Source: an uncultured Candidatus Saccharibacteria bacterium (GTDB taxonomy: Bacteria > Patescibacteriota > Minisyncoccia > Phycocordibacterales > UBA9973). Taken from it: a stretch of 64,000 nucleotides of DNA. Shown here in pieces: positions 2,979 to 54,893 of the stretch. The DNA is taken from contig CAZHJZ010000001.1 of assembly GCA_964532495.1 (NCBI GenBank), forward strand, positions 44,644-108,643. Reading direction: 5' to 3'. Position 1 is the first letter of the stretch. Every line of letters begins with the position of its first letter. The position numbers and the translations under genes were made by a program. A model generated the notes under the pieces. That model did not search any database. It worked only from the letters and a program-made list of their open reading frames with translations, and had not been told where the DNA came from.

Positions 2979-3084
2979 TTAAATATTTAGCTTACTTCTC
3001 TTTGAAAACATCCTCTGCAATATATGATCTGATGCAGCTTTGGCACGAATGAGATTGCATATTGTTAGTCTACTCTATTATGAC

Positions 3085-20996: not shown

Positions 20997-21132
20997 GGGT
21001 GGTTTTTTCGATATATTACATTTCAAATAGCAGACTGTCAAATGCAATGATGGGATAAATAACGATGATTCTATAGCTAATAAAAAGCGCGCTGGTATAA
21101 AAAATACCAACGCGTTACTACAATTAAATACT

Positions 21133-37237: not shown

Positions 37238-40200
37238 TTATTCTAAAATCTGTTTCAATAAATCTTCAGGAACTTCTTTTGTTTTTTTACCTGCAGGTAT
37301 CTTGGTACCATGCTGAACATCTTCTTTTGTTGCTTCCAATATCTTTTCTTTTTCCAGCCGCTCCGCTTCTTCTTTTTGTTCTATTTCTTGTTCAGCCTTG
37401 ATTCGCGCCTCTTCTTCCCGTTTCTTCGCATTCAGAAGTTCTTGCGCTTCCACTTCCTTACGGCGCAGTTCTTCTTTCAATTCTTCTTCTTGCCGCTTTG
37501 CTTTCAAACGCTCTTCTTCCTGCTTTGCCTGAAGTTCTGCGAGTTCGCGCTTTCTGGCTTCGTCGATTTCCATAAGCCGTTTCTTCTCAGCTTCAACTTC
37601 AGCTAAAGCTTTGATACGGGCTTCTTCTTGTTCAGCCAATCTCTTTTTCTCTGCTTCTACTTCGCGCTCCATTTTTTCTTTCAGTTCCTGAAGCTTTCGC
37701 TCTTCTTCTTTTTGCTTCGCAATAAGAGCTTGCTTCATTTCTTCATCTTTCCGCTGTTTCTCTTCAAGCTCGCGCTTTTCTTGTTCTTGTTTTTGCTTTT
37801 CTTTTTCCAGCCGCTCCGCTTCTTCTTTTTCTTTTTCCGCCTGCAATCGAGCTTCAGATTCAAGTTTCTCTAGAGCGGCCTTTTTTGCGGCATCGGCGTC
37901 GGTGAGCGCATCCTGAGGAGGCAGTATAGTAGAGCCTGTATTCTGAGCTTGCGGCTGCGGTGGAATATTTATCGTGATATGCACATCTGGAGATGGTTGT
38001 GGTGTTTCCGGAGGCTTCGCTTCGCCCATGGCCAAAGAAATGGCATCTTTGAGCATATTTTGGCGTTCTGGCTGAGCTTCTTTAGTAGGAGTTATGAATT
38101 GCGAATTTGTTTTATTCTTAAGGCTATCGAGCGAAAGTCCTGCTTTCTGAGGTTCCGGAGCAGCATTATTTTCTTGAGCCTGTTCTTGTGAAGCAACAGG
38201 ACGTTGGGGCTGAGAACTTCTCATGACACCACCTAAAGCGTCTTTCAACAGACTCTGTAATGCTCCAGTATCAGGCATCTTGCGCTCTTTACGTGCAATA
38301 GGCGCTCGTACTGCCCTCGGTTGCGGCAAAGACACATCAGTTGACGAAGAACCTGTTGTGCGAGATGGTGCGCCAGCAGGCTGCGGTCGAGGAGCTTGCG
38401 GCGGCACATCTCGAATATCCGCTCTAATCATTCCTTGCGGAGGCATAGTCGGATCGGGTCTGCTATTTGAAACGCGCGGAGGCATTGTAGGCGCAGGACG
38501 AGGAGCTTGAGGTGCCATCGGTCGCGGTGATGGAGATGGTGAAGAAACAGCGGCTGGTGTAGACACTGGCTCAGTTGTAGCTCGAGGAGTTGCGGCAGGC
38601 TGAGTAGCTGGTGCTGGGCGAGGAGTGAATGATGAAGGCGTAGGCGTTCCAGGTCGCGGAGTATATGCAGGACGTGGCGTGTATGCGGGTCGATCATTTC
38701 GAGGCGGAGCTGCTGAGCGAGTTTCTTCCTTAAATTCAATACCCAGACTTGCGAGTGCGTTGTATGAAATATTATCCTTTCGTTCTTTTGGCGGACGGAA
38801 TCCAGCTCCCGCTTCTATTTCACCGTTTTTAATCTTGAAGAGACATTCTTTACAGTAAATTGGACGGCCTTCTTCGGGCTCAAAAGGAACATAAATGGAT
38901 TTGCCGCAGTTTGAACATGTCGCTTTGAATTTTCCTTCTGTTTCTTCTCCATCAGGTCGCGTCTGTCCAGGCACGGTAGAACTCCATTTCTGAATTTCAG
39001 CTTCAACTTCGCTTCGTCGGCGGGTAAAGTTATTTCGCGAAGTCTCAATAACACTATTACGAATATCATCAGATGTCTGCACATTTACTGGCGGAAGCGT
39101 TTTAGCGGAAAACGGACGCGAAGTAACACCGTCCACCATGAGCTTGTTATAGATATGATAGTTTGGCAGGTTGACGAAATCTTCAACAGTAAATTCTGGT
39201 TCAAATTCTTTTTCGAGAGCATCGGCATCATCGGCGCCGACACGGAAAATAATCATCGTACCAACGTTACCGAACACGGCGTCTTTCACTGTTTTTGAAT
39301 CAGCAGTTTCGAGCTGTGCGATGTATTGGTGAGCGATGATCAAGCACAAACGGTATTTACGCGCTTCAGAAAGAATTGAAGCAAACGAGTCAGTAACAAA
39401 GTTTTGGAATTCGTCCACATACAAGTAAAAGTCTTCACGCTGGTTTTCAGGAATACGAACACGCTCCATGGCAGAAAGCTGGAGCTTGGTGATCAACATA
39501 CCTCCAAGGAGCGCAGAGTTGTCTTCACCGATACGTCCCTTTGACACGTTCACCAAGAAGATCTTCTTGTTGTTCATGATATCAAAGATGTTGATCGTTG
39601 ATCGTGTTTGTCCAACCACGTTACGCACAATGTTTGACGACAAAAATTGTCCGACTTTGTTTTGAATCGGAGCGATAGCTTCGTTACGGAATTGGTCACG
39701 CCATGCTTCGTATTCGTGCACCCAAAAGGCTTTCACCACTGGGTCTTTCAAATTGTTGATGATGTACTGGCGGTAGTCTTTGTCCACCAACATACGAGGA
39801 ATACCCAACAGCGTTGTGTCGGGCGTATCGAGCAACGCCAAGATGGTGTTGTTCAAGATGTATTCCATTCGAGATGACCAGGCATTGGCCCAGATTTTGG
39901 TGAAGATTCCCATCAAACCGGATGCAACCAAGTGCTTGTATCTTGGATCGTCGAGCTGCAAAACGTTAAATCCGATGTTGTGATCAGTGTCAGCCGGGTT
40001 AAAGTAAATAACATCCCCTGCTCGTTCTGGCGGGATTGTCTCCAATATTTTCTCAACCAGTTCTCCGTGCGGGTCGACAACACAGACACCTTCACCTTGG
40101 TGAATGTTCTGGATGATCATGTTTTCAAGCATTACGGATTTACCGGTACCGGATTTACCGAGCACATACATGTGCTGGCGTCGGTCTTTTCGCTTGATGC

Positions 40201-40273
40201 CGAAAATTTGATCGGTACCTCGGAAGTTCGTCTTCGCGAAGTACGTTATATCTTTGTTGAATGGAAAATCCAT
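37238..40273 (-). CDS. VirD4/TraG/TraD-like (T4CP-like) P-loop ATPase fused to a zinc ribbon, a Pro-rich linker and a long E/K coiled-coil tail
   Basis: Walker A YVLGKSGTGKSV, Walker B FYLYVDEFQNF, and IIAHQYIAQL. A C4 ribbon CSNCGKSIYVPFEPEEGRPIYCKEC follows at about residue 470, then RPAYTPRPAYTPRPGTP... and an ERLEKEK-type coiled coil of about 330 aa. 1011 aa. Confidence 0.65.
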   Translation of the reverse strand: MDFPFNKDITYFAKTNFRGTDQIFGIKRKDRRQHMYVLGKSGTGKSVMLENMIIQNIHQGEGVCVVDPHGELVEKILETIPPERAGDVIYFNPADTDHNIGFNVLQLDDPRYKHLVASGLMGIFTKIWANAWSSRMEYILNNTILALLDTPDTTLLGIPRMLVDKDYRQYIINNLKDPVVKAFWVHEYEAWRDQFRNEAIAPIQNKVGQFLSSNIVRNVVGQTRSTINIFDIMNNKKIFLVNVSKGRIGEDNSALLGGMLITKLQLSAMERVRIPENQREDFYLYVDEFQNFVTDSFASILSEARKYRLCLIIAHQYIAQLETADSKTVKDAVFGNVGTMIIFRVGADDADALEKEFEPEFTVEDFVNLPNYHIYNKLMVDGVTSRPFSAKTLPPVNVQTSDDIRNSVIETSRNNFTRRRSEVEAEIQKWSSTVPGQTRPDGEETEGKFKATCSNCGKSIYVPFEPEEGRPIYCKECLFKIKNGEIEAGAGFRPPKERKDNISYNALASLGIEFKEETRSAAPPRNDRPAYTPRPAYTPRPGTPTPSSFTPRPAPATQPAATPRATTEPVSTPAAVSSPSPSPRPMAPQAPRPAPTMPPRVSNSRPDPTMPPQGMIRADIRDVPPQAPRPQPAGAPSRTTGSSSTDVSLPQPRAVRAPIARKERKMPDTGALQSLLKDALGGVMRSSQPQRPVASQEQAQENNAAPEPQKAGLSLDSLKNKTNSQFITPTKEAQPERQNMLKDAISLAMGEAKPPETPQPSPDVHITINIPPQPQAQNTGSTILPPQDALTDADAAKKAALEKLESEARLQAEKEKEEAERLEKEKQKQEQEKRELEEKQRKDEEMKQALIAKQKEEERKLQELKEKMEREVEAEKKRLAEQEEARIKALAEVEAEKKRLMEIDEARKRELAELQAKQEEERLKAKRQEEELKEELRRKEVEAQELLNAKKREEEARIKAEQEIEQKEEAERLEKEKILEATKEDVQHGTKIPAGKKTKEVPEDLLKQILE

Positions 40274-40759: not shown

Positions 40760-40791
40760 ATCCTCCGGAACCCACCCGGTGGATTTTTTTA
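40760..40791 (+). terminator. rho-independent terminator after 40416..40757 (also abuts the stop of the last Cys-rich gene)
   Basis: ATCCtCCGG-aacccac-CCGGTGGAT followed by TTTTTTT. Confidence 0.6.
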
Positions 40792-42444
40792 TACGAATGC
40801 TTGGTTGTAACAGGTGTCGCAATATAAAATTTCTGGACGGTCAGGAGAGTAAGATGTTTGAATGGGAGTTGAGCAATTGGAGCAGGTACGACTAAACAAC
40901 ATGTTTGGGCCGCGCGCCGCGAAGCGGCGCGCGTGCCTGCAATCAGGACAAAGATGCGGCAACGGGATTTCCAACCGCTTATAAAACGAAAACTCATTCG
41001 GAATGATGCGATAATTCTTGGTGCAAGATTCGCAAGCAAAAATTTCCTTTGCTAAATCACTGTCGGTTTCTCCGATAGCATCAGGCATTTCCGACCACTG
41101 CTTCGTTTCTTTTCCATAAGTACCGCGCGGCGTATCTTCCCACTTAAAACCTTGGGCAAGCGCTTCTTCTTTAGAAAGAGGAAACTGTTCCTGAGTCGCT
41201 GATTCGTTGTATCCAAAACACGAAATCTGAGCTGGGAAAAACTGGCCGTATTCCCCCGTCTCTTTCATTTGCGCAACGATCTCACCCCTCAATTGCTCAT
41301 ATGTTTCTTTATCATACTGCTTATTCAAAATACAATAATCTTTTTTACGTAAACCTGCACAACCAAAAATGTAGTTTGAATTGAAACAATTCATTGCGTA
41401 CTCGGCAAACGTGGAACTCCAAACCTGGGCGCAGCAAACATAGTTGGCAACGTCGATGCCAGCGTTAATTGAATTGTAGATCATGCTGGCATTTCGTCCG
41501 GCAGTAGAAACGTCCATGCAATCCTTGGCATTTCGCCACACATGTTCGGCATAGGAGCAATCCTCTGCATCATAACAGTGAAAACATTCCTTGCAGTTCT
41601 TTGCATGCTTCATGTAGTTGCCTGAAGAATTCATCGTATTTACAATCTCTGCATACTTTCTCGGCTGAGTCAGTAAAAATTCATTGAAAGCAGCACGAAA
41701 GGCCTCCAATCCAGAGGCGGTATCAAGGCGCATCTCCTGCACCTTTGCAAAATAATCTTCCTTCGAATACGCCTGATTAAAAATATAATATTGCTGCTGG
41801 CGTAAATTCACGCACCCCAAACAATCCGAGCAGCCCTTGCAGTCGATCAGAAAGGCGCTTTCGCGGCAATCATGGCAGCCTTTTGAATATTTCAATTTAT
41901 ATGAGTTGTAGCAATCGTCGCATTCGTAACAAAGCTCGCATTTGGAAGCGAACGATGTATCAATAACATCGCGGCATTCCTGGATCCAAAATGAATGAAT
42001 GGAATCTTCATTGTTCGAGCTTTCAATAATGAAGTAGCAATTTTTGTTGTCGGCGGAAATATTAATGTATTCGCTACCAGGACTGCGAACGTAAATCAAA
42101 GCAACCTTTGGTATCACTGTATACAATTCTTCAAACTGCTCCATAAATGGTCGTGAAGGGTCGTATTCCCGCGCATACTCTATGCCATCCCAATCATCAG
42201 CAAACCAACATTCGTAACACCAAACCGTATACGGCTTATTCGGTGAATACATGGAAACAACATCCTTTTTGCATTTGTCGCACGCGCGCTTGTAAAAAAC
42301 ACGCTCGTTGCGAAAACTGAGGCGCAACTGGGCACGGCAGATTGGACAGAGATTGGGAGGAATAACACCTATTTTTTCATAAAATGAAGTGTCATTCTCT
42401 GTCACTGTAAAGCTAGCGGTACATTTGTCGCAGGTTTTTTGCAT
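40789..42444 (-). CDS. cysteine-rich zinc-ribbon protein, array paralog 1 (last gene of the operon)
   Basis: 551 aa. N-terminal ribbon C-x2-C...FYEKIGVIPPNLCPICR, repeated C-x2-C clusters, the YYIFNQAYSKEDY motif, the C-terminal ribbon CESCTKNYRIIPNEFSFYKRLEIPLPHLCPDCRHARR, and the end ...YCDTCYNQAFV. Confidence 0.7.
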   Translation of the reverse strand: MQKTCDKCTASFTVTENDTSFYEKIGVIPPNLCPICRAQLRLSFRNERVFYKRACDKCKKDVVSMYSPNKPYTVWCYECWFADDWDGIEYAREYDPSRPFMEQFEELYTVIPKVALIYVRSPGSEYINISADNKNCYFIIESSNNEDSIHSFWIQECRDVIDTSFASKCELCYECDDCYNSYKLKYSKGCHDCRESAFLIDCKGCSDCLGCVNLRQQQYYIFNQAYSKEDYFAKVQEMRLDTASGLEAFRAAFNEFLLTQPRKYAEIVNTMNSSGNYMKHAKNCKECFHCYDAEDCSYAEHVWRNAKDCMDVSTAGRNASMIYNSINAGIDVANYVCCAQVWSSTFAEYAMNCFNSNYIFGCAGLRKKDYCILNKQYDKETYEQLRGEIVAQMKETGEYGQFFPAQISCFGYNESATQEQFPLSKEEALAQGFKWEDTPRGTYGKETKQWSEMPDAIGETDSDLAKEIFACESCTKNYRIIPNEFSFYKRLEIPLPHLCPDCRHARRFAARGPNMLFSRTCSNCSTPIQTSYSPDRPEILYCDTCYNQAFV

Positions 42445-42453
42445 GTATGAGTA

Positions 42454-44151
42454 TTATACTACTTCTTTTTGATAACAGTCTTCGCAATAAATCGGTCGCG
42501 GCTCCTTGTCGGTAAAGAACGTCTCAAAGGTATTTGCACACCGACTATCATGTCCGTGGGAATCTTGCCCACAATCACACTGACGAGAAACGAGATCATA
42601 CCCACCCCTCATATTTTGGCGCCTCATATGACGACAGAAGAAACATTCAGTTGGAATTGGGACTGCTAATCTTCGATAGAGCAAGAGCTCGTCAGGCAGA
42701 ATGCGGTAATTTCGCCCGCAGCTTTCGCAGGCCAAAATTTCTTTTAGAATTTCATCTGTAACATCATGTATAGAATTTGGAACTTGGTCTTGAGAAATAG
42801 TTTCCTTCCCTTTCGTCTGCTGAATTTCGTCTTGCCATCTATAACCTTGAGCCAATGCGTCTTCTCGATTGAACTGTAATTCCCAATTAGCTCGTGTTTC
42901 ATTTATGCCGAATGGCGAAAGAGAGGACGGGAAAAATTCTCCATACTCTCCACGAATTTTCATATCTTCAATTATTTTCTTTGAGAGTTCCTGATATTCC
43001 TCTTTTGAGTATCGCTTGTTCAAAATAACATACTCTCCTTTTTTTACACTTGTACAGCCAAGAATGTTATTGCATCCATGGCAGTCAAACGAATATGAAG
43101 CGAAGGTATTTTTCCAGCATTCAATTGTAGAGAGGCTTCTCGATGACTGATCTGGCGTAATGCACTCATATGCAAGCTCAGTTTCGCCGCCGACTTCGCA
43201 GTCATAACACATTTTGTATGTCACGCCATTATGTACATATTTTGAATCTTCTGAAAATGAGGCAAACGATGAAGACTTGGTATTTTTGCCGCGAATAATA
43301 TCTGAGCCAGTACACGCGACGCTGCTTTGCAGCTCAGCGAATTTCCGAGGATAGGGCGCAACCCATTCAGTAAATTCCTTTCGTGCTCGTTCATAGCCCG
43401 ATCGTGTATGGAGCTGATATGACTCTAAAATGTGCTGATATTCTTCTTTTGAATATTGCTGATTTTTGAAATAATATTTTTTGTTTCGCAGGCCGCTAGA
43501 CATAAAACAATCTTGCGAGCCGCGACAGTCATAGCAAAGAACACAATTGATGCATGATGTGCACCAATATACGCTTCTGCAGTTAGAAACTCCATTAGCG
43601 GCGACACCATCATACAGATATTGCGATTCCTCGGTAATAATCAATGTATCTGACATGTCTTTTCCCGCTGCGAGCGAAACTGAGTTAAATACATTTTCAA
43701 CTCTCCAAGCAATGAAAACCATAGCGCAGTTTTTTGCAAAAGCCACATCGTTCGTATAGAGACAGTTAATGCTTGCAATATCGTTGTCGTTTACGATTCC
43801 AAGTACTGGAGTCTTATGATTAAGCTCCACTACCTGTTCAATAAAAGAGCGCGTCGGATCATACTCAACGCCATAACTATACGGATCCCAATTATCGCTA
43901 TGAAAACATTTTGGACAAAGCACGGTAAAACCGCTATTCGGCGCATAGATGGAAATAAAATTCTTTTCGCAAAGCGAACACTGGCGCGAATAGAGGTTGA
44001 AATCATTTCTCCACGACAAACGCCGAATACGGCGGCACCGCGGACAAAGCGTCGGAGCTGGAACGTCAATCTTCTCATAAAAGCCTAAATCGTCAGCTTC
44101 GATTACGAAGGCAGTTGAGCAGTTTTTGCATTGTTTGGTTTCTGGGTTCAT
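42454..44151 (-). CDS. cysteine-rich zinc-ribbon protein, array paralog 2
   Basis: 565 aa with the same architecture. The C-terminus is ...YCEDCYQKEVV. There is a 9-nt gap to paralog 1. Confidence 0.7.
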   Translation of the reverse strand: MNPETKQCKNCSTAFVIEADDLGFYEKIDVPAPTLCPRCRRIRRLSWRNDFNLYSRQCSLCEKNFISIYAPNSGFTVLCPKCFHSDNWDPYSYGVEYDPTRSFIEQVVELNHKTPVLGIVNDNDIASINCLYTNDVAFAKNCAMVFIAWRVENVFNSVSLAAGKDMSDTLIITEESQYLYDGVAANGVSNCRSVYWCTSCINCVLCYDCRGSQDCFMSSGLRNKKYYFKNQQYSKEEYQHILESYQLHTRSGYERARKEFTEWVAPYPRKFAELQSSVACTGSDIIRGKNTKSSSFASFSEDSKYVHNGVTYKMCYDCEVGGETELAYECITPDQSSRSLSTIECWKNTFASYSFDCHGCNNILGCTSVKKGEYVILNKRYSKEEYQELSKKIIEDMKIRGEYGEFFPSSLSPFGINETRANWELQFNREDALAQGYRWQDEIQQTKGKETISQDQVPNSIHDVTDEILKEILACESCGRNYRILPDELLLYRRLAVPIPTECFFCRHMRRQNMRGGYDLVSRQCDCGQDSHGHDSRCANTFETFFTDKEPRPIYCEDCYQKEVV

Positions 44152-45906
44152 CTAGTTAGTTTCCTTTTGATAACAACTTTCACAATATACCATTTCTGGC
44201 CGTTCGGGAGCATACGAACTCTTGAACTGATTCGGGCAATCCCCAACATGGTCATGCAATCCTGCAAGATCGGGTCGCGCAGTGTCGGCTGAAGCGCGAC
44301 CCTTTTGACACATGCATTCACGCAGCCAAAGTTGCGGCGGATTAACAAACTTGAACCGATCAGTAAATCGACACATATGGCACTTTCTCGGGAGCGGCAA
44401 CTTCATGTTCTTATAAAATTGAAGCTCAAGTGGAATAATACGATATGCTTTACTACAATCAAGGCATTCAATAACTTCTTTCAATATTGAATCACCTACA
44501 TCTTTACTGTCATCTGGAAGGTCAGAAGCGGTGATTGTAGCCTTATACTCCGCTTGAACTGGCTCTCTCCATACAAAACCCAGCTCTTCTGCCTGGCTGG
44601 GCAGAAGAGGGTAAAAATCCTGAGCCATGCTTTCATTATAAGCATACGGTGAAAGTTCTGCAGGAAAAAATTCTCCGTATGTGTATGCTCTGCCAAGCTT
44701 ATCCATGTATGGCATTTCATTCATATGAGTAATTATCTTCTCGCGCAAAATTTCATATTCTTCCTTTGTATATTGCTTATTGAAAATACAGTATTGTTTT
44801 TTATAAAGGCCGACACAACCAAAACAATTAGTTACTCCATAAGAGAAAGCGCAGTACTCGACATCTCGCACGTCTCCCCAGCAGTTATAAGAAAACTTAA
44901 TATTGTAAGCGCCCAAACCGCATGTGACGCATTCATACATATTGTCGGCACGATCACCCCAAATTGTGTAATCGTATGCATTACTAGCTTTGTACTGCAT
45001 ATCCTGACAATAACGCAAATTCTCGCTTTGGCGGACTGAATACGAATCAGTAACATTCTTTGAGTCAAAGACGCGTTCGCCAGTAGAAGCTACAGTACGA
45101 AGCGTGTGATTATATTTTACTGGAAACTTCAGCCAGAAATCATGCGCTGTTTTTAACACGTCAGTTAGTACTGCATGAGAAGAAAGATTGTATTGTGCAA
45201 CCTTGCGATCATACTCTTCTTTGCTGTATGGCTCATTAAAAAAGTAGTTCGACTTCTTGGTTAAATTCACGCAGCCGAAGCAATTAGTGCAGCCGCGCAA
45301 GCCTTTTGAAAACCAGACATCAACACAGCTATCGCAATCGAGCGAATAGAAAGTGCGATAGCTTTTATCAGTCATGACAATTTCATAGCATAATTCATCT
45401 TCTGTTCCTTCATAGCTATCGAGCGTATCCTTCACATGATTCATCTTGCGCGCGTACGCGCAATTTTCCATATAATCACAGTTAAAACAAAGGTAGCAGT
45501 TTTTTGCTTCGCTTATTTCATTGCAGTACTCAGAATTCACCATGTTATATACAGAACGTGCAGCAAGGGGCGCTCGAGCAAGCAAGTCCTTGAATTGCTT
45601 AAAAAATGGTTTTGAGAAATCATAATCGACACCTGTGGCAAGCTTATCCCATTCATCGCCGTACCAAAATGCATTTTCATATGTGACAACAGAAGCTAGA
45701 GGAGAAAAGCCGGAAAAAATATCAGTTTGAGTATGCGAATCTTTGCGCCTAAAAAGTACTTTCTCGTTACGATATTGGAAGCGCCTAATCATTCGGCACT
45801 CAGGGCATAATGTTGGAGCAGGAACTTTCATTTTTTCATAAAAAGAAAAATCATCAGGCTCGATGTTGAAATCAGTTTTGCAGTTTTGGCAGTTTCTAGT
45901 TTCCAT
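44152..45906 (-). CDS. cysteine-rich zinc-ribbon protein, array paralog 3
   Basis: The ORF track extends to 45999, but the conserved start METRNCQNCKTDF lies at 45906, 5 nt after the paralog-4 stop. The stop of this gene abuts the paralog-2 ATG (TAGATG). Confidence 0.7.
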   Translation of the reverse strand: METRNCQNCKTDFNIEPDDFSFYEKMKVPAPTLCPECRMIRRFQYRNEKVLFRRKDSHTQTDIFSGFSPLASVVTYENAFWYGDEWDKLATGVDYDFSKPFFKQFKDLLARAPLAARSVYNMVNSEYCNEISEAKNCYLCFNCDYMENCAYARKMNHVKDTLDSYEGTEDELCYEIVMTDKSYRTFYSLDCDSCVDVWFSKGLRGCTNCFGCVNLTKKSNYFFNEPYSKEEYDRKVAQYNLSSHAVLTDVLKTAHDFWLKFPVKYNHTLRTVASTGERVFDSKNVTDSYSVRQSENLRYCQDMQYKASNAYDYTIWGDRADNMYECVTCGLGAYNIKFSYNCWGDVRDVEYCAFSYGVTNCFGCVGLYKKQYCIFNKQYTKEEYEILREKIITHMNEMPYMDKLGRAYTYGEFFPAELSPYAYNESMAQDFYPLLPSQAEELGFVWREPVQAEYKATITASDLPDDSKDVGDSILKEVIECLDCSKAYRIIPLELQFYKNMKLPLPRKCHMCRFTDRFKFVNPPQLWLRECMCQKGRASADTARPDLAGLHDHVGDCPNQFKSSYAPERPEMVYCESCYQKETN

Positions 45907-45911
45907 AATTA

Positions 45912-47669
45912 CTATAGTACTTCTTTCTGATAACATCCTTCGCAATAAATCTTCTCCACTCGCTCCGGTGCATAAGTTGTCTGAAACTCGTTCGCGCATG
46001 TGCCCGAGTGATCATGTGACTGAATGTCGCACATACAGGTACGCTGGTAGAGCTTCATCGGATTTCGCTGCTTGAGACGGTTATAGTGGCGACAGTTTGG
46101 ACAATAGACAGGCAATGGCACATTCATTTTATGATATAGATCAAATTCCTCAGACATGATTCGGAAAGCAGTTGTGCATTGTGAAATTTCACTTCCCTTG
46201 TTGCGGCATTCTATGATTTCTTTGGTAATTGAAGCGTCAGCTGTTTTGGAACCATCTGGAATCATTTCATTGGCAATCGAAATAGTGTAATTGCGTTCAT
46301 CCCGATCAAACCAAGTAAACCCTTGAGCCAGCGCGTCCTCTTTTGAAAGCGGAAAATATTCCTGTGCCACAGTTTCGTTATACGCAAACGGTGAAAGATT
46401 GTAAGGGAAAAATTCACCATACGTAAATGTTCTTCCTTTCGCATCGATATATGGCATTTCGTTCATATGAGCAATAATTTTCGGGATCAACGCCTCGTAT
46501 TCCTCTTTTGTATACTGCTTATTCAAAATACAATATTGCTTGCTTCGCAATCCGTGACAGCCAAAGAGATGGGATGAACCATGACAGTTGATCGAATACC
46601 GAACATCAAAACAATGATAGACTACGCCGGTAAAATACAGGTCTTGGGATTGAAGAGCAGAATCAAATGTATCGTACAATCGCTCGCCTTTTATACCTAC
46701 TCCTGGCCCTGAGTCATATGAATCCTTGATATCATATCCGCCCCATACCAAGTATTTGCCGTCTTCGCAGCCGATCGGCGTGCCGACGATATCAAACGAA
46801 TATTTTAGATTCTTCGAGTTCTCGATATTTTCGCCAGTACAATTGACCGACTTATACATATTTGCAAAACGATGAATCTGACTTTCATGGAACTTCTGTG
46901 CCTTTGCTTTGTATTCTTCTATAGTGGAATGAGAAGTGAGATCTATGGTACTTAAAAATTCCAGATACTGTTCGCGAGTATATTGTTCATTGAAAACACA
47001 ATAGCTTTTGCCGCGTAGGTTTGTACAGCCAAAGCAATTCTGACAGTTTACGCATGATTCCAGAAAATATGAATCAGCGCACTGTTTGCAGTTTTTGGAA
47101 TATTGAACTTTAAAATTATTATGCGAGTTTACAAGCTCGTAACAAAGTTCATTATGATTGGCAATGTACATTTCCGCAGATTGTTTGTTTTCCGTCACGC
47201 GGTTGCCGTACATAGTGTCTTCGTTACTATGAGAAGCAGAAAGCATGAAGCCGTTTTTATCCCCTTCGGCCACATTGCAGTACTCGCAGTTAACCATGTT
47301 AGTCACTGAAAGATTAATAAGCGGAATACGCTCATACAATTCTTTGAATTGCTGAAAAAAGGGTTTTGAGAAATCATAGTCCTTTCCATATTCAATCGGA
47401 TCCCATGAGTCGCCCCACCACGTGCGATCATCATAAACAGTATACGCAGTTCCCGGGCGATGAATAGAAACGATCTGTTCGCCCAATTTCCCTGGGGCAT
47501 TATTTTCGCGACTATAGAGCGTCCGCTCATTACGGAACATCATGCGTCGCTGAAATCGGCACATAGGGCAAAATGTCGGCGGCGGAACATTAATCTTGCC
47601 GTAAAAAGCAAAATCTTCCTCTACTATGAGAAATGATTTCTTGCAGTTTTGGCAGTTCCGGGTTTCCAT
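45912..47669 (-). CDS. cysteine-rich zinc-ribbon protein, array paralog 4
   Basis: The ORF track extends to 47795, but the conserved start METRNCQNCKKSF lies at 47669, 7 nt after the paralog-5 stop. Confidence 0.7.
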   Translation of the reverse strand: METRNCQNCKKSFLIVEEDFAFYGKINVPPPTFCPMCRFQRRMMFRNERTLYSRENNAPGKLGEQIVSIHRPGTAYTVYDDRTWWGDSWDPIEYGKDYDFSKPFFQQFKELYERIPLINLSVTNMVNCEYCNVAEGDKNGFMLSASHSNEDTMYGNRVTENKQSAEMYIANHNELCYELVNSHNNFKVQYSKNCKQCADSYFLESCVNCQNCFGCTNLRGKSYCVFNEQYTREQYLEFLSTIDLTSHSTIEEYKAKAQKFHESQIHRFANMYKSVNCTGENIENSKNLKYSFDIVGTPIGCEDGKYLVWGGYDIKDSYDSGPGVGIKGERLYDTFDSALQSQDLYFTGVVYHCFDVRYSINCHGSSHLFGCHGLRSKQYCILNKQYTKEEYEALIPKIIAHMNEMPYIDAKGRTFTYGEFFPYNLSPFAYNETVAQEYFPLSKEDALAQGFTWFDRDERNYTISIANEMIPDGSKTADASITKEIIECRNKGSEISQCTTAFRIMSEEFDLYHKMNVPLPVYCPNCRHYNRLKQRNPMKLYQRTCMCDIQSHDHSGTCANEFQTTYAPERVEKIYCEGCYQKEVL

Positions 47670-47676
47670 AGGGTTA

Positions 47677-49392
47677 CTATAGCACTTCTTTTTGATAACA
47701 ATCTTCGCAATACACTTTCTCGATACGAAGAGGAGAATACGTAGTTTCAAAGCGATTTTCGCACTCGCCTTCATGGTTATGCCCCGAGATAGCACAGTTA
47801 CACTTCCTATTGTACAGCTCTGGTAGATTTACCATACTAAATCTTCGTAAGTGACGGCAGTTGAAACAATTCCTTGGCAGCGCGATTCCAAACCGTCGAA
47901 GCATGCCTAATTCTTCAGGAACAATACGATACACTTTGCCGCACGAAGCGCAGGAAAGTATTTCTTTTACAATATCATCTGCAACGTCAGAGATTGAATC
48001 AGGCAAATCAACGGATTTAATCGTCGCCGTAAAATTACCAGGAATAACTTCTCTGTATTTCCAGCCTTGCTGCTTGGTTGCCTCCTCGCTTAACGGCTTA
48101 TAATCCTGGGCGATGGTTTCATTATAGGTATAGGGCGAAAGCTCGATTGGGAAAAATTCGCCATAGCCATATGATCTTCCAGCACTGTCTATGTATTTCA
48201 TCTCATTCATCTGTGCGCGAATCTTTGGAACAAGCTCTTCGTATTCTTCCTTAGAATATTGCTTATTGAAAATACAGTACTGCTTTTTGCGCAGGCCAAC
48301 ACAGCCGAATAAATTGCTTGAGTTATGGCAATTGATGCAATATTCCATATTGTACGAATTCCAAACGGCGATACAAAAGAGCAACACGGCTGCCGTGTCT
48401 CCGCAGTCTACTGATTCATATAACCGTTCGGCGTTAACTCCGATGCCATACCCGTCATACAGATCGTACGAATTTACTAATGTATTTATTATATATCTCG
48501 AATCTTTTACTCCATCAAAGACGCTGAATCCATATTTAACATTGAAGCAGCTTCGGAGATTGTTTCCCGTAGACTCTTCAGAATTTATAAGATTGGCGTA
48601 TCGATGAATAGCGGCATTTTTTATTTCTGAGAATCTTTTCATCGCTTTCACAATATTGGAGTATGCAGCGAGATTGTATTCTTTTATTTTCTCTGAATAC
48701 TCAGCTTTTGTATATTGAACATTCTCAAATACATATTGCTTATTTCGTAAGTTTGAAGATAAGAAGCAATTATCGCAATTTTTACAGTCAAAAAGAAAGG
48801 CACAATCCGTACAAGCAGTGACTTGATCTGAAAAAAATACTCTATTGGACTTGAGGAGAGATACTGATTCATAGCAGTATTCTGAATCAGTAATCGCATA
48901 GCAATCCATGAGATTTTTTACTTTATTGGCGAGAACAGAATACAGAATATCTTCGGCATCCCAGGATGCAGAAACGAGATAGCAATTCTTGGCCTCCCCA
49001 ACATGATTGCCATATTCTGTATTAATAGACTTACCAATAAAGACGGCTGCCATAGGGGTGGCATTTAACAGTTCCCTATATTGTATGAAAAACGGTCGAG
49101 AAAAATCATACTCTCGCGCAGAAATACTTGTATCGCATTCATCTCCCCACCAAAAATCTCTCTCCACAATATTCATCCCTTCCTCGGGAGAAAAACAAGA
49201 AATGATAGATTTGCCGCTGGCATTTGAAGTAACCCTATGCAAAGTTCGCTCATTTCTGTACGCGAACCTTCTGATCATGCGGCACTGAATGCAGAAAGTC
49301 GGAAAAGGTACCTGAACCTTAGCGTAAAAATCCTGATCGGTTTGATCAATACTGAATTCAGTTTTACAGTTTTGGCAGGTTCGGGTTTCCAT
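47677..49392 (-). CDS. cysteine-rich zinc-ribbon protein, array paralog 5
   Basis: Conserved start METRTCQNCKTEF at 49392, 2 nt after the paralog-6 stop. The ORF track extends to 49419 via a TTG start. Confidence 0.7.
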   Translation of the reverse strand: METRTCQNCKTEFSIDQTDQDFYAKVQVPFPTFCIQCRMIRRFAYRNERTLHRVTSNASGKSIISCFSPEEGMNIVERDFWWGDECDTSISAREYDFSRPFFIQYRELLNATPMAAVFIGKSINTEYGNHVGEAKNCYLVSASWDAEDILYSVLANKVKNLMDCYAITDSEYCYESVSLLKSNRVFFSDQVTACTDCAFLFDCKNCDNCFLSSNLRNKQYVFENVQYTKAEYSEKIKEYNLAAYSNIVKAMKRFSEIKNAAIHRYANLINSEESTGNNLRSCFNVKYGFSVFDGVKDSRYIINTLVNSYDLYDGYGIGVNAERLYESVDCGDTAAVLLFCIAVWNSYNMEYCINCHNSSNLFGCVGLRKKQYCIFNKQYSKEEYEELVPKIRAQMNEMKYIDSAGRSYGYGEFFPIELSPYTYNETIAQDYKPLSEEATKQQGWKYREVIPGNFTATIKSVDLPDSISDVADDIVKEILSCASCGKVYRIVPEELGMLRRFGIALPRNCFNCRHLRRFSMVNLPELYNRKCNCAISGHNHEGECENRFETTYSPLRIEKVYCEDCYQKEVL

Positions 49393-49394
49393 GA

Positions 49395-51137
49395 TTACAG
49401 TACCTCTTTTTGGTAACAACTCTCACAATACACTATTTCCGATCGATCAGGCGAATAGCTGCTTTCGAATATATTTGGGCAATGTGCCGCGTGCCCGTGA
49501 GACTCTTGCGCACACATGCATGCACGTGGCCAGACCTTGAGCGGATTGCGCTTTGCCAAGCGTTCATAGTGACGGCAATTAATACAGAGTCTTGGGAGCG
49601 GAATTCCCATTCGCTTGTACATTTGAAGCTCAGATGGAATAACGCGAAACGCATTTGTGCACTGATGATTGCACGTTCCCGCATGCAAGCATGAAATTAT
49701 TTCATTCGTAATAGTGTCTTCAATATCGTGTATCGAATCAGGAACCGTTAAAACATCCTTGGTAGGCATATATGATTTATCTTCAAGTTTTCTCCACACA
49801 AATCCCCTCTTTTCAATCTCCTCTTTTGTCATTGGAAAATATTCCTGGGCAATTGATTGATTGTATGGGAAAAATGACATTTCTTCTGGAAAAAACTCTC
49901 CATACGTATACGTACGGCCGCCTTTGTCGACATATGGCATTTCTGTCATATGCGCGATAATTTTCGGCAATAATTCAAAATATTCTTCTTTAGTGTACTG
50001 CTTGTTCAAGATGCAGTATTTTTTATTCTTGATACCCACACAGCCAAAACAATCCGAACAGTTTTTTATAAAATAATTATACTGACAAGAAAAGCTTTCC
50101 CAGATGTTTGCCGAGAAGCAAACATTTTGAACATTGCTGCCAGAGTCCATCAAGTCATAGCTGTTTTCAATATTCACTCCGATGGCATACGCATCATGGA
50201 CGCTCTTCATATTCGTTACGCCGTAGACACAATATTTCAGATCTTCCGCCGGTCCTTCGATATCGAAGCATTCCAGGCAGTTTTTGGCGCCATTCAAATA
50301 ATCACCAGTTGAAGCAACGGTATGGCGCGAATTGGAATATCGGCGCGGATATTTCGCCAGTAGTTCTTGATATTTTTTCTCAAATGCTTCACGGCCTGAA
50401 GCAGTATCGAGATGCAAACGTGTCACTTCTTTTGCATATTCTTCCTGAGTGTATTGAACATTCAAAATCTGGTTCTTGGCGTTTCGAAGGCCGGCGCAGC
50501 CAATGCAATCCTGGCAATTATGGCAGTCATAGCAAAATTTTGATTTGATACATGACTGACAGAGCTGCAACCCATCGCAGTCGTAGCACTGTTCACAATC
50601 CACCATGTTTTGGCATTTTTCATTCTTTCGAGAACCAAGCATGTCAAAACAGTCCCTGTTTTCAATCGAGTGGTAGAGATATGCCGTATCCTCGTTCATG
50701 TCGCTGGCGAAATTCAGATAGCAGTTTTTAGACTGGTACGTAAAATTGCAGTAGTCACTGTTTACATCCTGGAGATTGATGAGCGCCGGTGCCGGAACTG
50801 AATACAAAAGCTCCTTAAATTGCGAGAAGAACGGTTTTGAAAAATCATATTCTTTATGATGATCCATCGCATCCCATTCATCACTCCACCAATATTTCTG
50901 ATCATAGACTGGAAGTTTTAGTTCGGGCGGATACATCATAATGATCATCTCCTCGTGGCCAGGAGCATCGCATTTACGTTTATACAGACTTCGTTCGTTT
51001 CTCCAAGCCAAGCGGCGCTGCAATCGGCAATCCGGACAAAATGTCGGTGAAGGAACATTCAATTTTGTATAAAAATCAAAATCCTCAGATTTGATCTGAA
51101 ATGATTGTGCGCAGTTTTGGCAGTTCTTTGTTTCCAT
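49395..51137 (-). CDS. cysteine-rich zinc-ribbon protein, array paralog 6
   Basis: Conserved start METKNCQNCAQSF at 51137, 2 nt after the paralog-7 stop. The ORF track extends to 51173. Confidence 0.7.
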   Translation of the reverse strand: METKNCQNCAQSFQIKSEDFDFYTKLNVPSPTFCPDCRLQRRLAWRNERSLYKRKCDAPGHEEMIIMMYPPELKLPVYDQKYWWSDEWDAMDHHKEYDFSKPFFSQFKELLYSVPAPALINLQDVNSDYCNFTYQSKNCYLNFASDMNEDTAYLYHSIENRDCFDMLGSRKNEKCQNMVDCEQCYDCDGLQLCQSCIKSKFCYDCHNCQDCIGCAGLRNAKNQILNVQYTQEEYAKEVTRLHLDTASGREAFEKKYQELLAKYPRRYSNSRHTVASTGDYLNGAKNCLECFDIEGPAEDLKYCVYGVTNMKSVHDAYAIGVNIENSYDLMDSGSNVQNVCFSANIWESFSCQYNYFIKNCSDCFGCVGIKNKKYCILNKQYTKEEYFELLPKIIAHMTEMPYVDKGGRTYTYGEFFPEEMSFFPYNQSIAQEYFPMTKEEIEKRGFVWRKLEDKSYMPTKDVLTVPDSIHDIEDTITNEIISCLHAGTCNHQCTNAFRVIPSELQMYKRMGIPLPRLCINCRHYERLAKRNPLKVWPRACMCAQESHGHAAHCPNIFESSYSPDRSEIVYCESCYQKEVL

Positions 51138-51139
51138 AC

Positions 51140-52789
51140 TTATGCAATTTCTTTGAGGTAGCATTCTTCGCACGCTATACGCTTATATCCCCATGCTTTT
51201 GGATAGTAGGTATTAATATCTTTCGAGCAAAAATTACAGGTTGCGGGCACAATCTTGCTTGGGGCCAGTTTCTGCATGCGCTCCTTTGTTCGCACATCGA
51301 AATGCACTCGCGGAATAGCAATATGCATCCGTCTCAAAAATGCTAATTCCTCAGCAGAAATATTGTAGCGCCATCCAGTTACTGGACAAATAAGAGGTTG
51401 TTTGGAAAAACTTTCATCTACATCGTCGATTGAATCAGGAATATCAGCAGTAGGCATTCCCTCAGAAATATTTTCTGCACCTTCATCCCAATATCCACCG
51501 TGCTCTAAAACATATTCCTTTGTAACTTCCGGAAAATAAATTGACGCAGTTGTGAGGTTATACGGAACAAGACCCAAAGAATACGACGGAAAGACGCCAT
51601 ACTCCCCTCGTGCTTTCATATCTTCAATGATTTTTGCTTTTAGCGACTCGTATTCTTCTTTTGAATACTGCTTGTTCAAAATACAATATTTTTTCTTGCG
51701 CAAGCCGACACAACCAAAACAGTATTCGCATTCGAGACAAATATCGCAATATTCCGAGTATCGAGTGCCATCACACCAAATTGAATATTTCAAATCATAT
51801 GCATTGGTACAACAACTATTATTTCCCGATAGCTGAACATCCCAACATCCAGTCTGGTCTATACAATCTTTGTCGTTGCGACCGCGCATGCAGTTTGTGC
51901 AATTTTCAGAATCCTCAATGCTAAAAATATTTACACAGTCATTACAATTGGCCATATAGTTGCCGATTGAATTTTGAGTTTTGAGGCTGAAGTTTTCTCG
52001 GTGAACTACGTTTTCTCTAAGTATCTCAAGGTACCGAGCTTTGCACTTTTCAAGGCCAGCATGTGAACCTAAATCATACTCCTTTAATTTTTCAAAATAA
52101 GCCTCTTTGGTATATTGTTCATTCTCAATGCAGTATGACTTGCCGCGTAGATTCCAGGACATGAAGCAGTTTGTTGAATTACGGCAATCAAAAAGAAAGG
52201 CACTGTCGATGCAGTCCTTGCAGTTGATAGAGAATAATAACTTGCTGCAGTTGAAACAATAGGTGCAGTTATAGCATTGATCGAGATTGAAGACGTGAGA
52301 AATATCTATGGAGTCTTTGCTATCAAATGCACGATAACCATACATGAGATTTTCTCCGCGAACCATCGAGCGACTCAGGTAAGAATTTTTACATTCCCAG
52401 AGATCATCTCCCCAATCTGAATCAACATTCTGCGCTCCAGTCTGATGTGGCCGTGGAACTTTTTCCTGAAGTTCTTTGAGTTGATCGAAAAACGGTCGGT
52501 TAGGATCGTAGTCTTGTCCAAAATCCATTGGATCCCAGGCATCGCTCCACCATTCTTTGGAAGTATAAATCGGATACCGAGCATGTTCAGGTAATATAGT
52601 AATTAATTTTTCTCCAGAAAGATTGGACTTGCGTACTCTAAATTTTCCGAAAGGCCAAAAAGCGAAATGTTGCTTCCATCGGCAATTACGGCAAATGTTC
52701 GGCACTTCCAGGCCGATTTTCTCATACATTCCCATTTCCCTCTCTGTAGTCTGAAACGAAGTGTTGCAGGAAGCGCAGGTCTTACTCAT
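51140..52789 (-). CDS. cysteine-rich protein, divergent array paralog 7 (first gene of the operon)
   Basis: 549 aa. It shares the N-terminal ribbon (CASCNTSF...MYEKIGLEVPNICRNCR), the central Cys clusters and the KKYCILNKQYSKEEYE motif. It lacks the C-terminal ribbon and ends ...ACEECYLKEIA. Confidence 0.7.
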   Translation of the reverse strand: MSKTCASCNTSFQTTEREMGMYEKIGLEVPNICRNCRWKQHFAFWPFGKFRVRKSNLSGEKLITILPEHARYPIYTSKEWWSDAWDPMDFGQDYDPNRPFFDQLKELQEKVPRPHQTGAQNVDSDWGDDLWECKNSYLSRSMVRGENLMYGYRAFDSKDSIDISHVFNLDQCYNCTYCFNCSKLLFSINCKDCIDSAFLFDCRNSTNCFMSWNLRGKSYCIENEQYTKEAYFEKLKEYDLGSHAGLEKCKARYLEILRENVVHRENFSLKTQNSIGNYMANCNDCVNIFSIEDSENCTNCMRGRNDKDCIDQTGCWDVQLSGNNSCCTNAYDLKYSIWCDGTRYSEYCDICLECEYCFGCVGLRKKKYCILNKQYSKEEYESLKAKIIEDMKARGEYGVFPSYSLGLVPYNLTTASIYFPEVTKEYVLEHGGYWDEGAENISEGMPTADIPDSIDDVDESFSKQPLICPVTGWRYNISAEELAFLRRMHIAIPRVHFDVRTKERMQKLAPSKIVPATCNFCSKDINTYYPKAWGYKRIACEECYLKEIA

Positions 52790-53381: not shown

Positions 53382-53415
53382 AGTGATCCTTCTGCCAAAA
53401 GCGGAGGGATTTTTT
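53382..53415. terminator. hairpin terminator between convergent genes
   Basis: ATCCTTCTGC-caaaa-GCGGAGGGAT (two G-U wobble pairs) followed by TTTTTTAT. Confidence 0.5.
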
Positions 53416-53423
53416 ATATTCAA

Positions 53424-54893
53424 CTAGATCAAAGGCTCAGCGGCCTTTTCTTGTTGCGGCGCTGCTGCCTGGGCATCGGAAGATCCGCGGCCAGTGTGGC
53501 TGATAGCTGCTTTTTCTTGGGCACTTCGAATGATAGTGGATTCTTCTTCGGCGATAAGCTTTTTGGCCATATCGGCTGGAATTGAGAATTTGCGTCGTGA
53601 CGCTTCGATAACTTCTTTGCGGTATGAAGGATGCGTTGGCGGCAGCACTTTCAGTGTTTCAGCAGAGAATGGGTCGTATGATTCGCCGTCGATGGTCATT
53701 TTGATATAGAACTCCCCCACACCGAGGTTGATCAAATCTTTGGTATCGAAAATTGGCGCAAATTCAGCTTTGAGCTTGATTGCATCATCACCTCCCAAAC
53801 GGAATGAAATAATTGATCCGACGTTACCGAGCACGGCCTGTTGGACTTTCGGCAAAAGCTGACCGACGTATTGGTGAGCAACTGTCAGGTTGAGTCCGTA
53901 CTTACGAGCTTCTGAAAGAATGTTTTCGAATGTATCAGTAACGACGTTCTGGAACTCATCCACGTACAAGTAGAAATCATAACGCTTTGAATGATCAAGT
54001 TTTGCACGAGCCATTCCTGCTTGCTTGATCTTGGTCAAGAACATAGCTCCGAAGAATGACGAGTTTTCTTCACCGATCTTACCTTTTGAAAGGTTAATCA
54101 TAAGAATTTTTTTCTCGTTCATCACTTTTTCAATGTCGATGCGGTTTTCTTTTTGTCCGAAAATGTTGCGCAACATTGGATCTGACAAGAACTGTCCGAG
54201 CTTGTTAACGAGCGGGATGATAGCGTCGGTATCGAACTTTTCAGACCAGTCCGCGAATTCGATCGCCCAGAAGCGCTTTACCATGTCGTCTTCGATATAT
54301 TCAACCACTTTTTGACGGTAGTTACGGTCGGTCAGCATTGAAATCATTCCACGCATCGTTGCGTATGGGTAGTCCAAAAGCGCGAGTGTGGTAAATCGAA
54401 AGACGTGCTCAAGACGCGGAGTCCAGTTGGAACCGAATTGCTTTTCCAACACTTCAATCAAGCCTTGGGTCAATTGGTGCTTGAAAGTTGGGTCAACGTT
54501 TGCGAGCGGGTTAAACGAAGCTGGATATTCAATGTCGCCCGGATCAATAATACAGACATCTTCAACGCGTTCCTTTGGGATAAAGTCCAAAATGTCATCA
54601 ATAAATTCTCCGTGCGGGTCAATGACGCACACACCATGACCCTGAGCGATGTCCTGGCGCACCATAAGTTCCTGAAGTTTGGATTTACCGACTCCGGACT
54701 TTCCGATGATGTAGAGGTGACGGCGGCGGTCAACGCGCTTGATACCAAAAACATAGCGCTTTTCTTCCAAAGCGGCTACATAGTTGGTTCGTCCAATAAA
54801 CGACACGTCTTCGGTCGTAACCTTGCCAAACTCAGGAAGTTCAGGAGGCGGCGGAGCGTATTTGATTAATTGGATTTTATTAAGCCGTGCCAT
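53424..54893 (-). CDS. VirD4/TraG/TraD-like (T4CP-like) P-loop ATPase, short paralog of 37238..40273
   Basis: Walker A YIIGKSGVGKSK, Walker B FYLYVDEFQNV, and LTVAHQYVGQL. It is collinear with the N-terminal 420 aa of the 1011-aa protein. 489 aa, with no fused tail. Confidence 0.7.
   Translation of the reverse strand: MARLNKIQLIKYAPPPPELPEFGKVTTEDVSFIGRTNYVAALEEKRYVFGIKRVDRRRHLYIIGKSGVGKSKLQELMVRQDIAQGHGVCVIDPHGEFIDDILDFIPKERVEDVCIIDPGDIEYPASFNPLANVDPTFKHQLTQGLIEVLEKQFGSNWTPRLEHVFRFTTLALLDYPYATMRGMISMLTDRNYRQKVVEYIEDDMVKRFWAIEFADWSEKFDTDAIIPLVNKLGQFLSDPMLRNIFGQKENRIDIEKVMNEKKILMINLSKGKIGEENSSFFGAMFLTKIKQAGMARAKLDHSKRYDFYLYVDEFQNVVTDTFENILSEARKYGLNLTVAHQYVGQLLPKVQQAVLGNVGSIISFRLGGDDAIKLKAEFAPIFDTKDLINLGVGEFYIKMTIDGESYDPFSAETLKVLPPTHPSYRKEVIEASRRKFSIPADMAKKLIAEEESTIIRSAQEKAAISHTGRGSSDAQAAAPQQEKAAEPLI

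Follow-up and report, generated by a model that had tools for sequence, protein, structure and literature searches.

The 64,000-nucleotide stretch of the Patescibacteria contig CAZHJZ010000001.1 analysed here (the window) carries seven co-directional paralogous genes on its minus strand (par1-par7, 40789-52789; par7 is the first gene and par1 the last), flanked by two genes for VirD4/TraD-like ATPases. All seven proteins end in a conserved tail, which by its sequence is predicted to form the second zinc knuckle of a divergent C-terminal CxxC-x17-CxxC finger (PF23477 zf_Tbcl_2/TIGR04272) together with the short helix that caps it. We regard it as moderately probable that the tail is an element of this zinc-knuckle fold and, jointly, that the proteins are cytoplasmic partners of the flanking ATPases, which have no transmembrane (TM) segment, through a shared docking or ligand-binding finger. 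The original prediction, made from the DNA alone, had proposed that the tail is a recognition signal for type IV coupling proteins (T4CPs). A functional tie to the ATPases is borne out by our analysis, whereas the signal reading lacks its usual supports and zinc ligation offers the simpler account.

The array occupies about 12 kb of the contig on its own, and its genes lie head to tail with intergenic spacings of 0-9 nt. With their starts trimmed to the start common to homologs, the seven products share 28-44% pairwise identity. They contain no hydrophobic or TM segment, are acidic, with net charges of -10 to -15, and consist of 5-7% cysteine. All seven C-termini have in common a C-x-x-C-Y motif from which five further residues lead to the stop codon. 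The stricter ending YCE-x-CYQKEV[LV], originally credited to six copies, is present in four (par2, par4, par5 and par6); par3 ends in YCESCYQKETN, par7 in ACEECYLKEIA and par1, as had been stated, in YCDTCYNQAFV. The CRH-x-RR ribbon reported to precede the tail is likewise found in three of the seven, and its relaxed form CxxCR[HF] in six. The METxxCQNC start is indeed missing from par7, but this is no peculiarity of that copy, as the motif occurs in par3-par6 only and par1 and par2 differ too. The N-terminal CxxC...CxxC ribbon (C5, C8, C33 and C36) is invariant in all seven paralogs. The observation of a shared tail is real and far beyond chance, though several of the counts attached to it were wrong.

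Profile comparisons assign the tail to a known class of zinc finger. A profile of 36 family tails aligned with a profile of stand-alone and ATPase-borne fingers at an hhalign probability of 96.2% (E value 2.2e-9), with 27 columns in register. In searches with the Pfam and TIGRFAM models, sub-threshold matches to zf_Tbcl_2 and TIGR04272 were placed exactly at paralog C-termini, and no tail match to either model was obtained in par3, par4, par6 and par7. A hidden Markov model (HMM) built from stand-alone fingers scored the tails of par1-par6 at 8.5-20.6 bits. The tail of par1 has retained the canonical spacing, CSNC-x17-CDTC. In par2-par6, a distance of 17 residues separates the cysteine before x-N-x-F from the last CxxC, and a C-x-C-x4-H-x-H insertion interrupts the first knuckle; the terminal finger of par7 has a spacing of x18. 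The stand-alone fingers follow the consensus CSDCGKETEVPFKPKEGRPVYCRDC[YF]QKHKKF, and in 91 of their 117 finger matches the chain stops 5-9 residues beyond the last cysteine. Since the generic consensus of the finger already contains VYC-x-x-CYQK, this wording of the tail is the ordinary signature of the finger. Two traits appear specific to the family: an acidic and hydrophobic end, E/N-[VI]-hydrophobic, where the stand-alone fingers have the basic H-K-K-F, and the fixed length.

Structure prediction is consistent with this assignment. In the AlphaFold2 (AF2) models, the tail runs from a strand through the zinc knuckle into a helix, with predicted local distance difference test (pLDDT) values of 81-93; the short terminal helix opens at the last CxxC and spans residues 563-570 in par5 and 541-548 in par7. 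Proteins of the CxxC-x17-CxxC type bind zinc, as determined by inductively coupled plasma mass spectrometry for two M. mazei members (PMC12704099). The finger cysteines are 98-100% conserved across 125 homologs of the paralogs, which suggests that the four cysteines of the family tails bind zinc as well.

The finger is not confined to the C-terminus. Each paralog starts and ends with what profile searches identify as the same predicted two-finger module, in which a zf_Tbcl-like finger precedes one of the CxxC-x17-CxxC type. When built from the last 96 residues, an HMM recovers the N-terminal 85 residues of family members with scores of 27-64 bits, and the reciprocal search also matches. In par1 and par2 the similarity extends through the second N-terminal finger (residues ~55-83; ...VLCPKCFHS against ...VYCEKCYQK); in par3-par7 this second finger has lost its cysteines. 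The model PF13451 (zf_Tbcl) scores the N-terminal and penultimate fingers of par1, par2 and par5 at 16.4-19.9 bits (cut-off 24) and finds no match in the other copies, and two database homologs carry a precomputed PF13451 match. The zf_Tbcl-like fingers each hold a conserved C-R-x-x-R-R-x3-R-N stretch.

The core between the modules consists of two β-solenoid halves that repeat every 12 residues, and an N-x-Q-Y-[ST]-K-E-E-Y helix caps each half. From N- to C-terminus, the proteins are built of a two-finger module, the first solenoid half and a helix, then the second half and a helix with conserved loops, and lastly another two-finger module. AF2 predicted par5 with a pLDDT of 84.5 and a predicted template modelling score of 0.86, and par7 with a pLDDT of 86.3. 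Foldseek searches of both models against the PDB returned no significant neighbour (best E values of 0.49 for par5 and 0.029 for par7, template modelling scores of at most 0.24), the matches being generic β-helices. A profile search of PDB sequences with the family gave chance antibody matches only, and in a Pfam scan no hexapeptide match was found and the core matched no model. The closest likeness is to β-solenoid proteins such as the left-handed β-helix acyltransferases LpxD, LpxA and GlmU and the γ-carbonic anhydrases, which were the sole Foldseek neighbours and share a short-period parallel β coil. In contrast to the 18-residue hexapeptide coil of the LpxD/LpxA/GlmU type, the family has a 12-residue period with inward-facing cysteine or serine, and the acyltransferase motifs are absent. 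A role of all solenoid cysteines as metal ligands was rejected, as most of them interchange with serine. The exceptions, in par5 numbering, are C194, C203, C206, C209 and C212 at the end of the first half (C-x8-C-x2-C-x2-C-x2-C; ~48757-48813, minus strand; 87-98% cysteine) and C355, C364 and C373 at the end of the second (C-x8-C-x8-C; ~48274-48330, minus strand; 82-98% cysteine). These two clusters may be extra metal sites.

The family is large, with 5601 matches in 90% clusters and 5321 representatives at 50% identity. All named matches come from Patescibacteria lineages, except one labelled Bacteroidia, and all are annotated as hypothetical; the family is apparently confined to Patescibacteria. 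A search of 2.9 million viral contigs found essentially no member, one marginal fragment excepted, and a phage or mobile-element origin was rejected on this ground, with which the even GC (guanine plus cytosine) content of the window agrees. The conservation of the tail holds in homologs from other genomes. In 381 of 389 homologs (262 of 269 general and 119 of 120 par7-type sequences) the chain ends exactly six residues after the last cysteine, with the consensus [VI]-Y-C-E-x-C-Y-[QN]-x-E-[VI]-hydrophobic. Among 560 sliding windows, the last 12 residues rank 31st in conservation, and the top rank is held by the internal motif YCI[LF]NKQY[ST]KEE. Each paralog shares 50-86% identity with orthologs elsewhere and 28-44% with the other copies of its own array. 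Because the paralogs are closer to orthologs elsewhere than to one another, the duplications are ancient and each lineage has been retained.

Similar tails in adjacent genes could also arise at the DNA level, either through gene conversion or through constraint on the ribosome-binding site of the next gene, which would lie in the QKE codons. These purine-rich codons are indeed located 10-15 nt before the next start codon, and the tails of par2, par4 and par5 are identical at 30-32 of 36 nt. However, third positions differ widely in most pairs (2-10 of 12 identical between paralogs), the tail is equally conserved in hundreds of other genomes, including in genes that are solitary or last in their array, and the same residues make up the consensus of the stand-alone fingers. 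Since the third codon positions differ, the similarity of the tails reflects selection on the protein, and gene conversion was rejected on the synonymous-site differences together with the conservation across genomes. We consider a DNA-level by-product extremely unlikely. As a separate observation, the tail codons (CAA AAA GAA/GAG G) form a Shine-Dalgarno-like stretch at this distance from the ATG of the next paralog; none is seen at par7, the first gene of the array, or at the ATPases.

The position of par7 as the promoter-proximal gene is confirmed by the order of the array. It is also the most diverged copy, as originally noted, with 28-32% identity to the other six, which share 32-44% among themselves. 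The claim that it lacks the C-terminal ribbon applies to one of its two C-terminal fingers: three of the four cysteine ligands of the penultimate finger are gone (ICPVTGW...RVHFDVR; C-P-V-T ... H-F-D-V), but the terminal ribbon, CNFC-x18-CEEC, is kept. Full-length par7-type orthologs (548-556 residues, 54-85% identity) occur in many genomes, and all share the degenerate penultimate finger (ICPxTGWRFNI...RVHFDVR) and a tail of the form [AS]-C-E-x-C-Y-x-x-[EN]-I-[ANS]. AF2 still folds the degenerate region of par7 confidently. There is at most one par7-type gene per locus, and it is not consistently first in other arrays. Judging from these alignments and the model, par7 appears to be a separate, ancient and strongly conserved lineage and not a decaying copy, and its first C-terminal finger is predicted to keep its shape without zinc ligands.

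The two flanking ATPases display a Walker A motif, GKSGxGKS, and a Walker B motif, YVDEF. ATPase 1 and ATPase 2 match TrwB_AAD_bind at 58.6 and 30.6 bits (cut-off 20.5) and TraG-D_C at 32.0 and 22.2 bits (cut-off 22), and ATPase 2 matches T4SS-DNA_transf at 25.7 bits (cut-off 20.1). In ATPase 1 the finger is strong, with 46.6 bits for zf_Tbcl_2 and 48.5 bits for TIGR04272 at residues 449-480. No TM segment was found in either ATPase, the maximal 19-residue hydropathy being 1.0. A search for other domains fused to the ATPase finger recovered stand-alone fingers only; 10 of its 11 query rows were padded with the flanking GK/AG residues of the window, which makes the alignment slightly artificial. 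The stretch of ATPase 1 that follows the finger (37238-38842, residues ~480-1011) is first proline-rich and then Glu/Lys-rich and coiled-coil-like, and it differs greatly in length between orthologs of ATPase 1, which total 602-956 residues.

To quantify the linkage between the family and the ATPases, two samples of loci were used. Of the 84 loci retrieved through similarity to the family (1.32 Mb in total), 26 contain ATPase genes; these number 35, compared with about 2.6 expected from two such genes per ~1-Mb genome (PMC12102498). Conversely, 40 of 80 metagenome loci fetched by ATPase similarity contain a family gene, as do 23 of the 38 such loci of at least 12 kb. With the exception of two loci, these family genes point in the same direction as the ATPase. 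The linkage is real in both directions. Median gaps are 83 nt between an ATPase gene and a family gene and 51 nt between family genes. In the recurrent cassette, a finger-bearing ATPase and a second ATPase enclose a run of family genes (from one up to seven or more), and the finger is present in 12 of 31 neighbouring ATPases. Neither of the two results that were to refute the original prediction was obtained: the tail is conserved in other genomes and the association with T4CP-like ATPases holds, so that some functional tie to the ATPases is well supported.

Genomes differ in how many family genes they carry (from 1 to more than 10) and in the order of these genes, and clean tracing is possible for the par1-type and par7-type lineages only. 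This led us to reject a fixed hetero-heptamer in which each paralog supplies one subunit. Because number and order vary while each paralog has orthologs elsewhere, the copies look like a repertoire of specialised variants and not like fixed subunits. A gene for a lamin-tail-domain (LTD) protein follows the finger-bearing ATPase in the window and also in five other loci (L004, L005, L027, L080 and L113), two of which (L027 and L080) repeat the layout of the window. The LTD protein of the window also has a sub-threshold PKD_4 match. With its C-terminal membrane anchor and 15-residue cytoplasmic tail, it could supply the membrane attachment that the anchor-less ATPase itself is missing.

The linkage and the tail also have to be weighed against a role in secretion, in which the flanking T4CP-like ATPases would recognise the extreme C-terminus as a signal, and the paralogs would be effectors for a type IV secretion system (T4SS) whose channel is encoded elsewhere. 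A conserved tail with a fixed chain length after it, the linkage to VirD4/TraD-like ATPases in both directions and the variable-copy arrays, which resemble effector repertoires, all agree with such a role. So does the precedent of the Xanthomonas XVIPCD, a folded, conserved C-terminal domain that serves as a VirD4-binding signal. C-terminal T4SS signals of the VirB/D4 and Dot/Icm systems are unstructured and typically positively charged or marked by a Glu-rich block. The family tail does not fit this typical pattern: it is modelled as a folded zinc knuckle, the last 20 residues carry a net charge of -1 to -2 in six of the seven copies, and the same module stands at the N-terminus.

T4SSs are widespread in Patescibacteria and essential in one cultured species, and their T4CP genes usually lie far from virB4 (PMC12857230; PMC12102498), which counts in favour of effectors. 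However, the T4CP homolog of Southlakia is non-essential although its T4SS is essential (PMC12102498). The ATPases of the window also have no counterpart of the N-terminal membrane domain seen in T4CPs of the TrwB and TcpA types; in T4CPs, the membrane domains had to be removed for crystallography (PMC12857230). Their scores against the curated T4CP models, 45-59 bits, are far under all of the cut-offs, which range from 250 to 650 (44.6 and 58.8 bits against 366 for SXT_TraD; 51.1 against 250 for CD1115), and TrwB, their only PDB relative, is matched over just 48 residues around Walker A (E value 1e-5). Channel genes are absent from the scanned open reading frames (ORFs): a scan of 30 other larger ORFs of the window revealed neither VirB4 nor VirB6 nor a relaxase, and no second large ATPase cluster recurs in the 84 family-anchored loci. 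Moreover, sequence conservation is high for effectors, and three or four zinc fingers plus a solenoid would resist unfolding, whereas protein substrates of T4SSs are thought to cross unfolded or partly unfolded (PMC12857230). Because the module is also internal, the tail is folded and acidic and the ATPases have neither an anchor nor channel neighbours, we judge a secretion role to be quite improbable. The case for a coupling signal is further weakened because zinc ligation and fold closure account for the conservation of the tail.

Another proposal takes the motors as its starting point. The family could comprise nucleic-acid-binding partners of FtsK/TraD-type DNA motors which, with the extracellular LTD protein, form an envelope-associated device for DNA uptake or handling, and the fingers with their Arg-rich helices would contact DNA or RNA. 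In line with this, the TraD/VirD4 and CedD-like group to which the ATPases belong consists of DNA pumps, the LTD membrane protein recurs after the finger-bearing ATPase, the C-R-x-x-R-R-x3-R-N stretch is conserved in each zf_Tbcl-like finger, the stand-alone PF23477 fingers have basic tails, and Patescibacteria depend on imported DNA for nucleotides (PMC12857230). Yet the paralogs are acidic overall, and their terminal finger has lost the basic tail of the stand-alone fingers. No known nucleic-acid-binding or nuclease domain was detected in Pfam, TIGRFAM, PDB-sequence and PADLOC searches; the PADLOC defence models returned nothing for the paralogs and generic HerA/mad8 P-loop matches for the ATPases. 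In addition, the LTD linkage is limited to a handful of loci. We regard this proposal as unlikely on balance.

We favour instead the reading in which the tail would be conserved mainly for zinc ligation and fold closure. The family proteins would probably remain in the cytoplasm as functional partners of two paralogous, TM-less VirD4/TraD-like ATPases, in a recurrent co-directional cassette that often appears to be followed by a membrane-anchored LTD protein. In one class of these ATPases the finger directly follows the motor domain, so that its most likely role is that of a docking or ligand-binding element, shared by both sides and directed at a common partner (nucleic acid, or one another), and not that of an export tag. 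Several observations weigh against this reading. The tails score below the curated cut-offs (14.4-15.9 against 27 bits for PF23477; 16.1 against 36 bits for TIGR04272), and the par7 tail goes undetected by the stand-alone-finger HMM. About 70% of the family-anchored loci have no ATPase within 10 kb, and in the window the array is its own transcription unit, separated from each ATPase by small opposite-strand ORFs. A role in zinc binding covers the cysteines, the tyrosine and probably the hydrophobic residue at position -2, but not obviously the ~89% conserved glutamate (or asparagine) at -3 or the fixed chain end six residues after the last cysteine. Since these two features are not obviously required for the fold, they leave room for a role of the free C-terminus.

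A bolder extension would make the family solenoid with its finger bookends the missing client of the orphan, anchor-less VirD4-like ATPases that Patescibacteria encode by the thousand and, with the membrane-anchored LTD protein, part of a lineage-specific, envelope-associated translocation machine. In its boldest form, the family proteins may be cargo that is recognised by the terminal finger and delivered to the host cell of the epibiont. We consider this extension distinctly improbable.

The features of the locus are compiled in Table 1.

Table 1. Features of the paralog array and its surroundings, in coordinates of the window.
Feature	Position	Strand	Description
C-terminal relic	2990..3064	-	Orphan 25-codon stop-to-stop frame, QYAISFVPKLHQIIYCRGCFQREVS then stop; matches extreme C-terminus of family profile
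LTD protein	35745..37208	-	487 residues; N-terminal signal-like segment, two LTD stretches, C-terminal TM segment and 15-residue tail
ATPase 1	37238..40273	-	1011 residues; soluble VirD4/TraD-like P-loop core, finger at 38843-38917, then ~530-residue low-complexity tail
Small ORF between array and ATPase 1	40416-40757	+	113 residues
par1	40789..42444	-	551 residues; last gene of array; orthologs 56-76% identity
par1 canonical CxxC-x17-CxxC fingers	42208-42282 (N-terminal module); 40810-40884 (C-terminal module)	-	
par2	42454..44151	-	565 residues; second finger of N-terminal module intact (CSLC-x17-CPKC)
par3	44152..45906	-	584 residues; ends YCESCYQKETN; stop codon abuts par2 start
par4	45912..47669	-	585 residues
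par5	47677..49392	-	571 residues; reference for structure model
par6	49395..51137	-	580 residues; start trimmed to METKNCQNC; closest ortholog 85% identity
par7	51140..52789	-	549 residues; first, promoter-proximal gene of array
Tails (last 12 codons and stop)	47677..47715 (par5); 40789-40827, 42454-42492, 44152-44190, 45912-45950, 49395-49433, 51140-51178	-	par5 tail VYCEDCYQKEVL then stop
Shine-Dalgarno-like tail stretches	42445-42492, 45907-45950, 47670-47715, 49393-49433	-	
Promoter-like sites upstream of par7	52823-52796 and 52931-52904	-	Two sites; consensus matches only
Small ORF between array and ATPase 2	52953-53369	+	138 residues; lipoprotein-like N-terminus
Terminator-like hairpin	53385-53411		After the 138-residue ORF
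ATPase 2	53424..54893	-	489 residues; soluble VirD4/TraD-like; without finger

The relic near the start of the window scores 15.5-18.9 bits over positions 558-579 of the 580-position family HMM. It lies 38 kb from the array, flanked by a TauE gene and a small membrane ORF, and by its sequence looks like what remains of a small finger gene or of a family copy since lost. A near-identical protein (within one 90%-identity cluster) to the 113-residue product encoded between the array and ATPase 1 is present in a JGI metagenome. The other scanned ORFs of the window are housekeeping genes (UvrB, YchF, TGT, MreB/C, an aminoacyl-tRNA synthetase, MurJ, DivIC and, by cluster name, LepA) or have no Pfam match. 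Among the latter are three consecutive ORFs (276, 349 and 459 residues; 19071-22512, minus strand) in the region of lowest GC content (0.358 at 20-22 kb). A 535-residue protein (15373-16980, minus strand) has a Zeta-toxin/AAA_33 kinase-like domain in its C-terminal half and no assigned domain in its N-terminal half.

Two further gene types recur near family genes in the 84 family-anchored loci. In 16 loci, mostly labelled Peregrinibacteria/Peribacteria, a gene for a helix-turn-helix-like protein of ~250 residues (TrmB-like by eye) lies divergently upstream of the array and sometimes inside it; such genes were recorded in L013-L017, L021, L025, L029, L030, L032, L035, L044, L047, L049, L059, L065 and L082. 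A cluster of DnaK-like ORFs, named by eye, is represented in 11 loci (L002, L010, L024, L041, L055, L067, L070, L075 and L077-L079; the L002 member is MreB by Pfam) and a DnaJ-like cluster in six. In four loci the DnaK-like gene is located just upstream of the finger-bearing ATPase. These neighbours may reflect clade synteny or be meaningful.

Comparing the family finger with the stand-alone PF23477/TIGR04272 fingers, which are proteins of 45-75 residues in DPANN archaea, Methanosarcina and candidate phyla radiation bacteria, reveals the same ligand pattern and x17 spacing, the motifs F/Y-x-P and R-P-x-x-Y-C-x-x-C-[YF]-Q-K, and a chain end near the last cysteine. Unlike these proteins, the family finger is the last domain of a protein of 550-585 residues, scores below the cut-offs and has exchanged the basic H-K-K-F end for E-[VI]-hydrophobic. 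The narrow claim about the tail is deflated by this comparison, as its wording is a known zinc-finger consensus and not a newly found signal. A full-text literature search found no description of the family or of its linkage to orphan VirD4-like ATPases. What appears to be new is the family as a whole together with this linkage, while the tail domain is a divergent member of a known finger family.

With the T4CPs VirD4, TrwB and TraD, the ATPases of the window share the P-loop motor, a TrwB_AAD_bind match above threshold and a linked multi-copy family with a conserved C-terminal domain. They differ in having no membrane domain, no VirB4 or relaxase gene was found nearby, and the putative client is conserved over its full length and repeats the module at its N-terminus. 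The nearest analogy for recognition through a C-terminal signal is the XVIPCD of Xanthomonas. The closest match for the ATPases themselves is provided by Quinonero-Coronel et al. 2025, who counted 5,713 VirD4-like genes in 2,918 Patescibacteria genomes, only 148 of them near virB4, and suggested exaptation of the orphan genes, of which there are about two per genome (PMC12102498). Both sets are Patescibacteria VirD4-like genes away from virB4; in the searched passages of that study no partner is named, and neither the family nor the LTD neighbour appears. The locus gives the orphan VirD4-like ATPases a concrete, recurrent genetic partner and bears on the question, raised by that study (PMC12102498), of what these ATPases do. 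The zinc finger that the ATPases share with the family proteins offers a candidate contact between them that can be tested.

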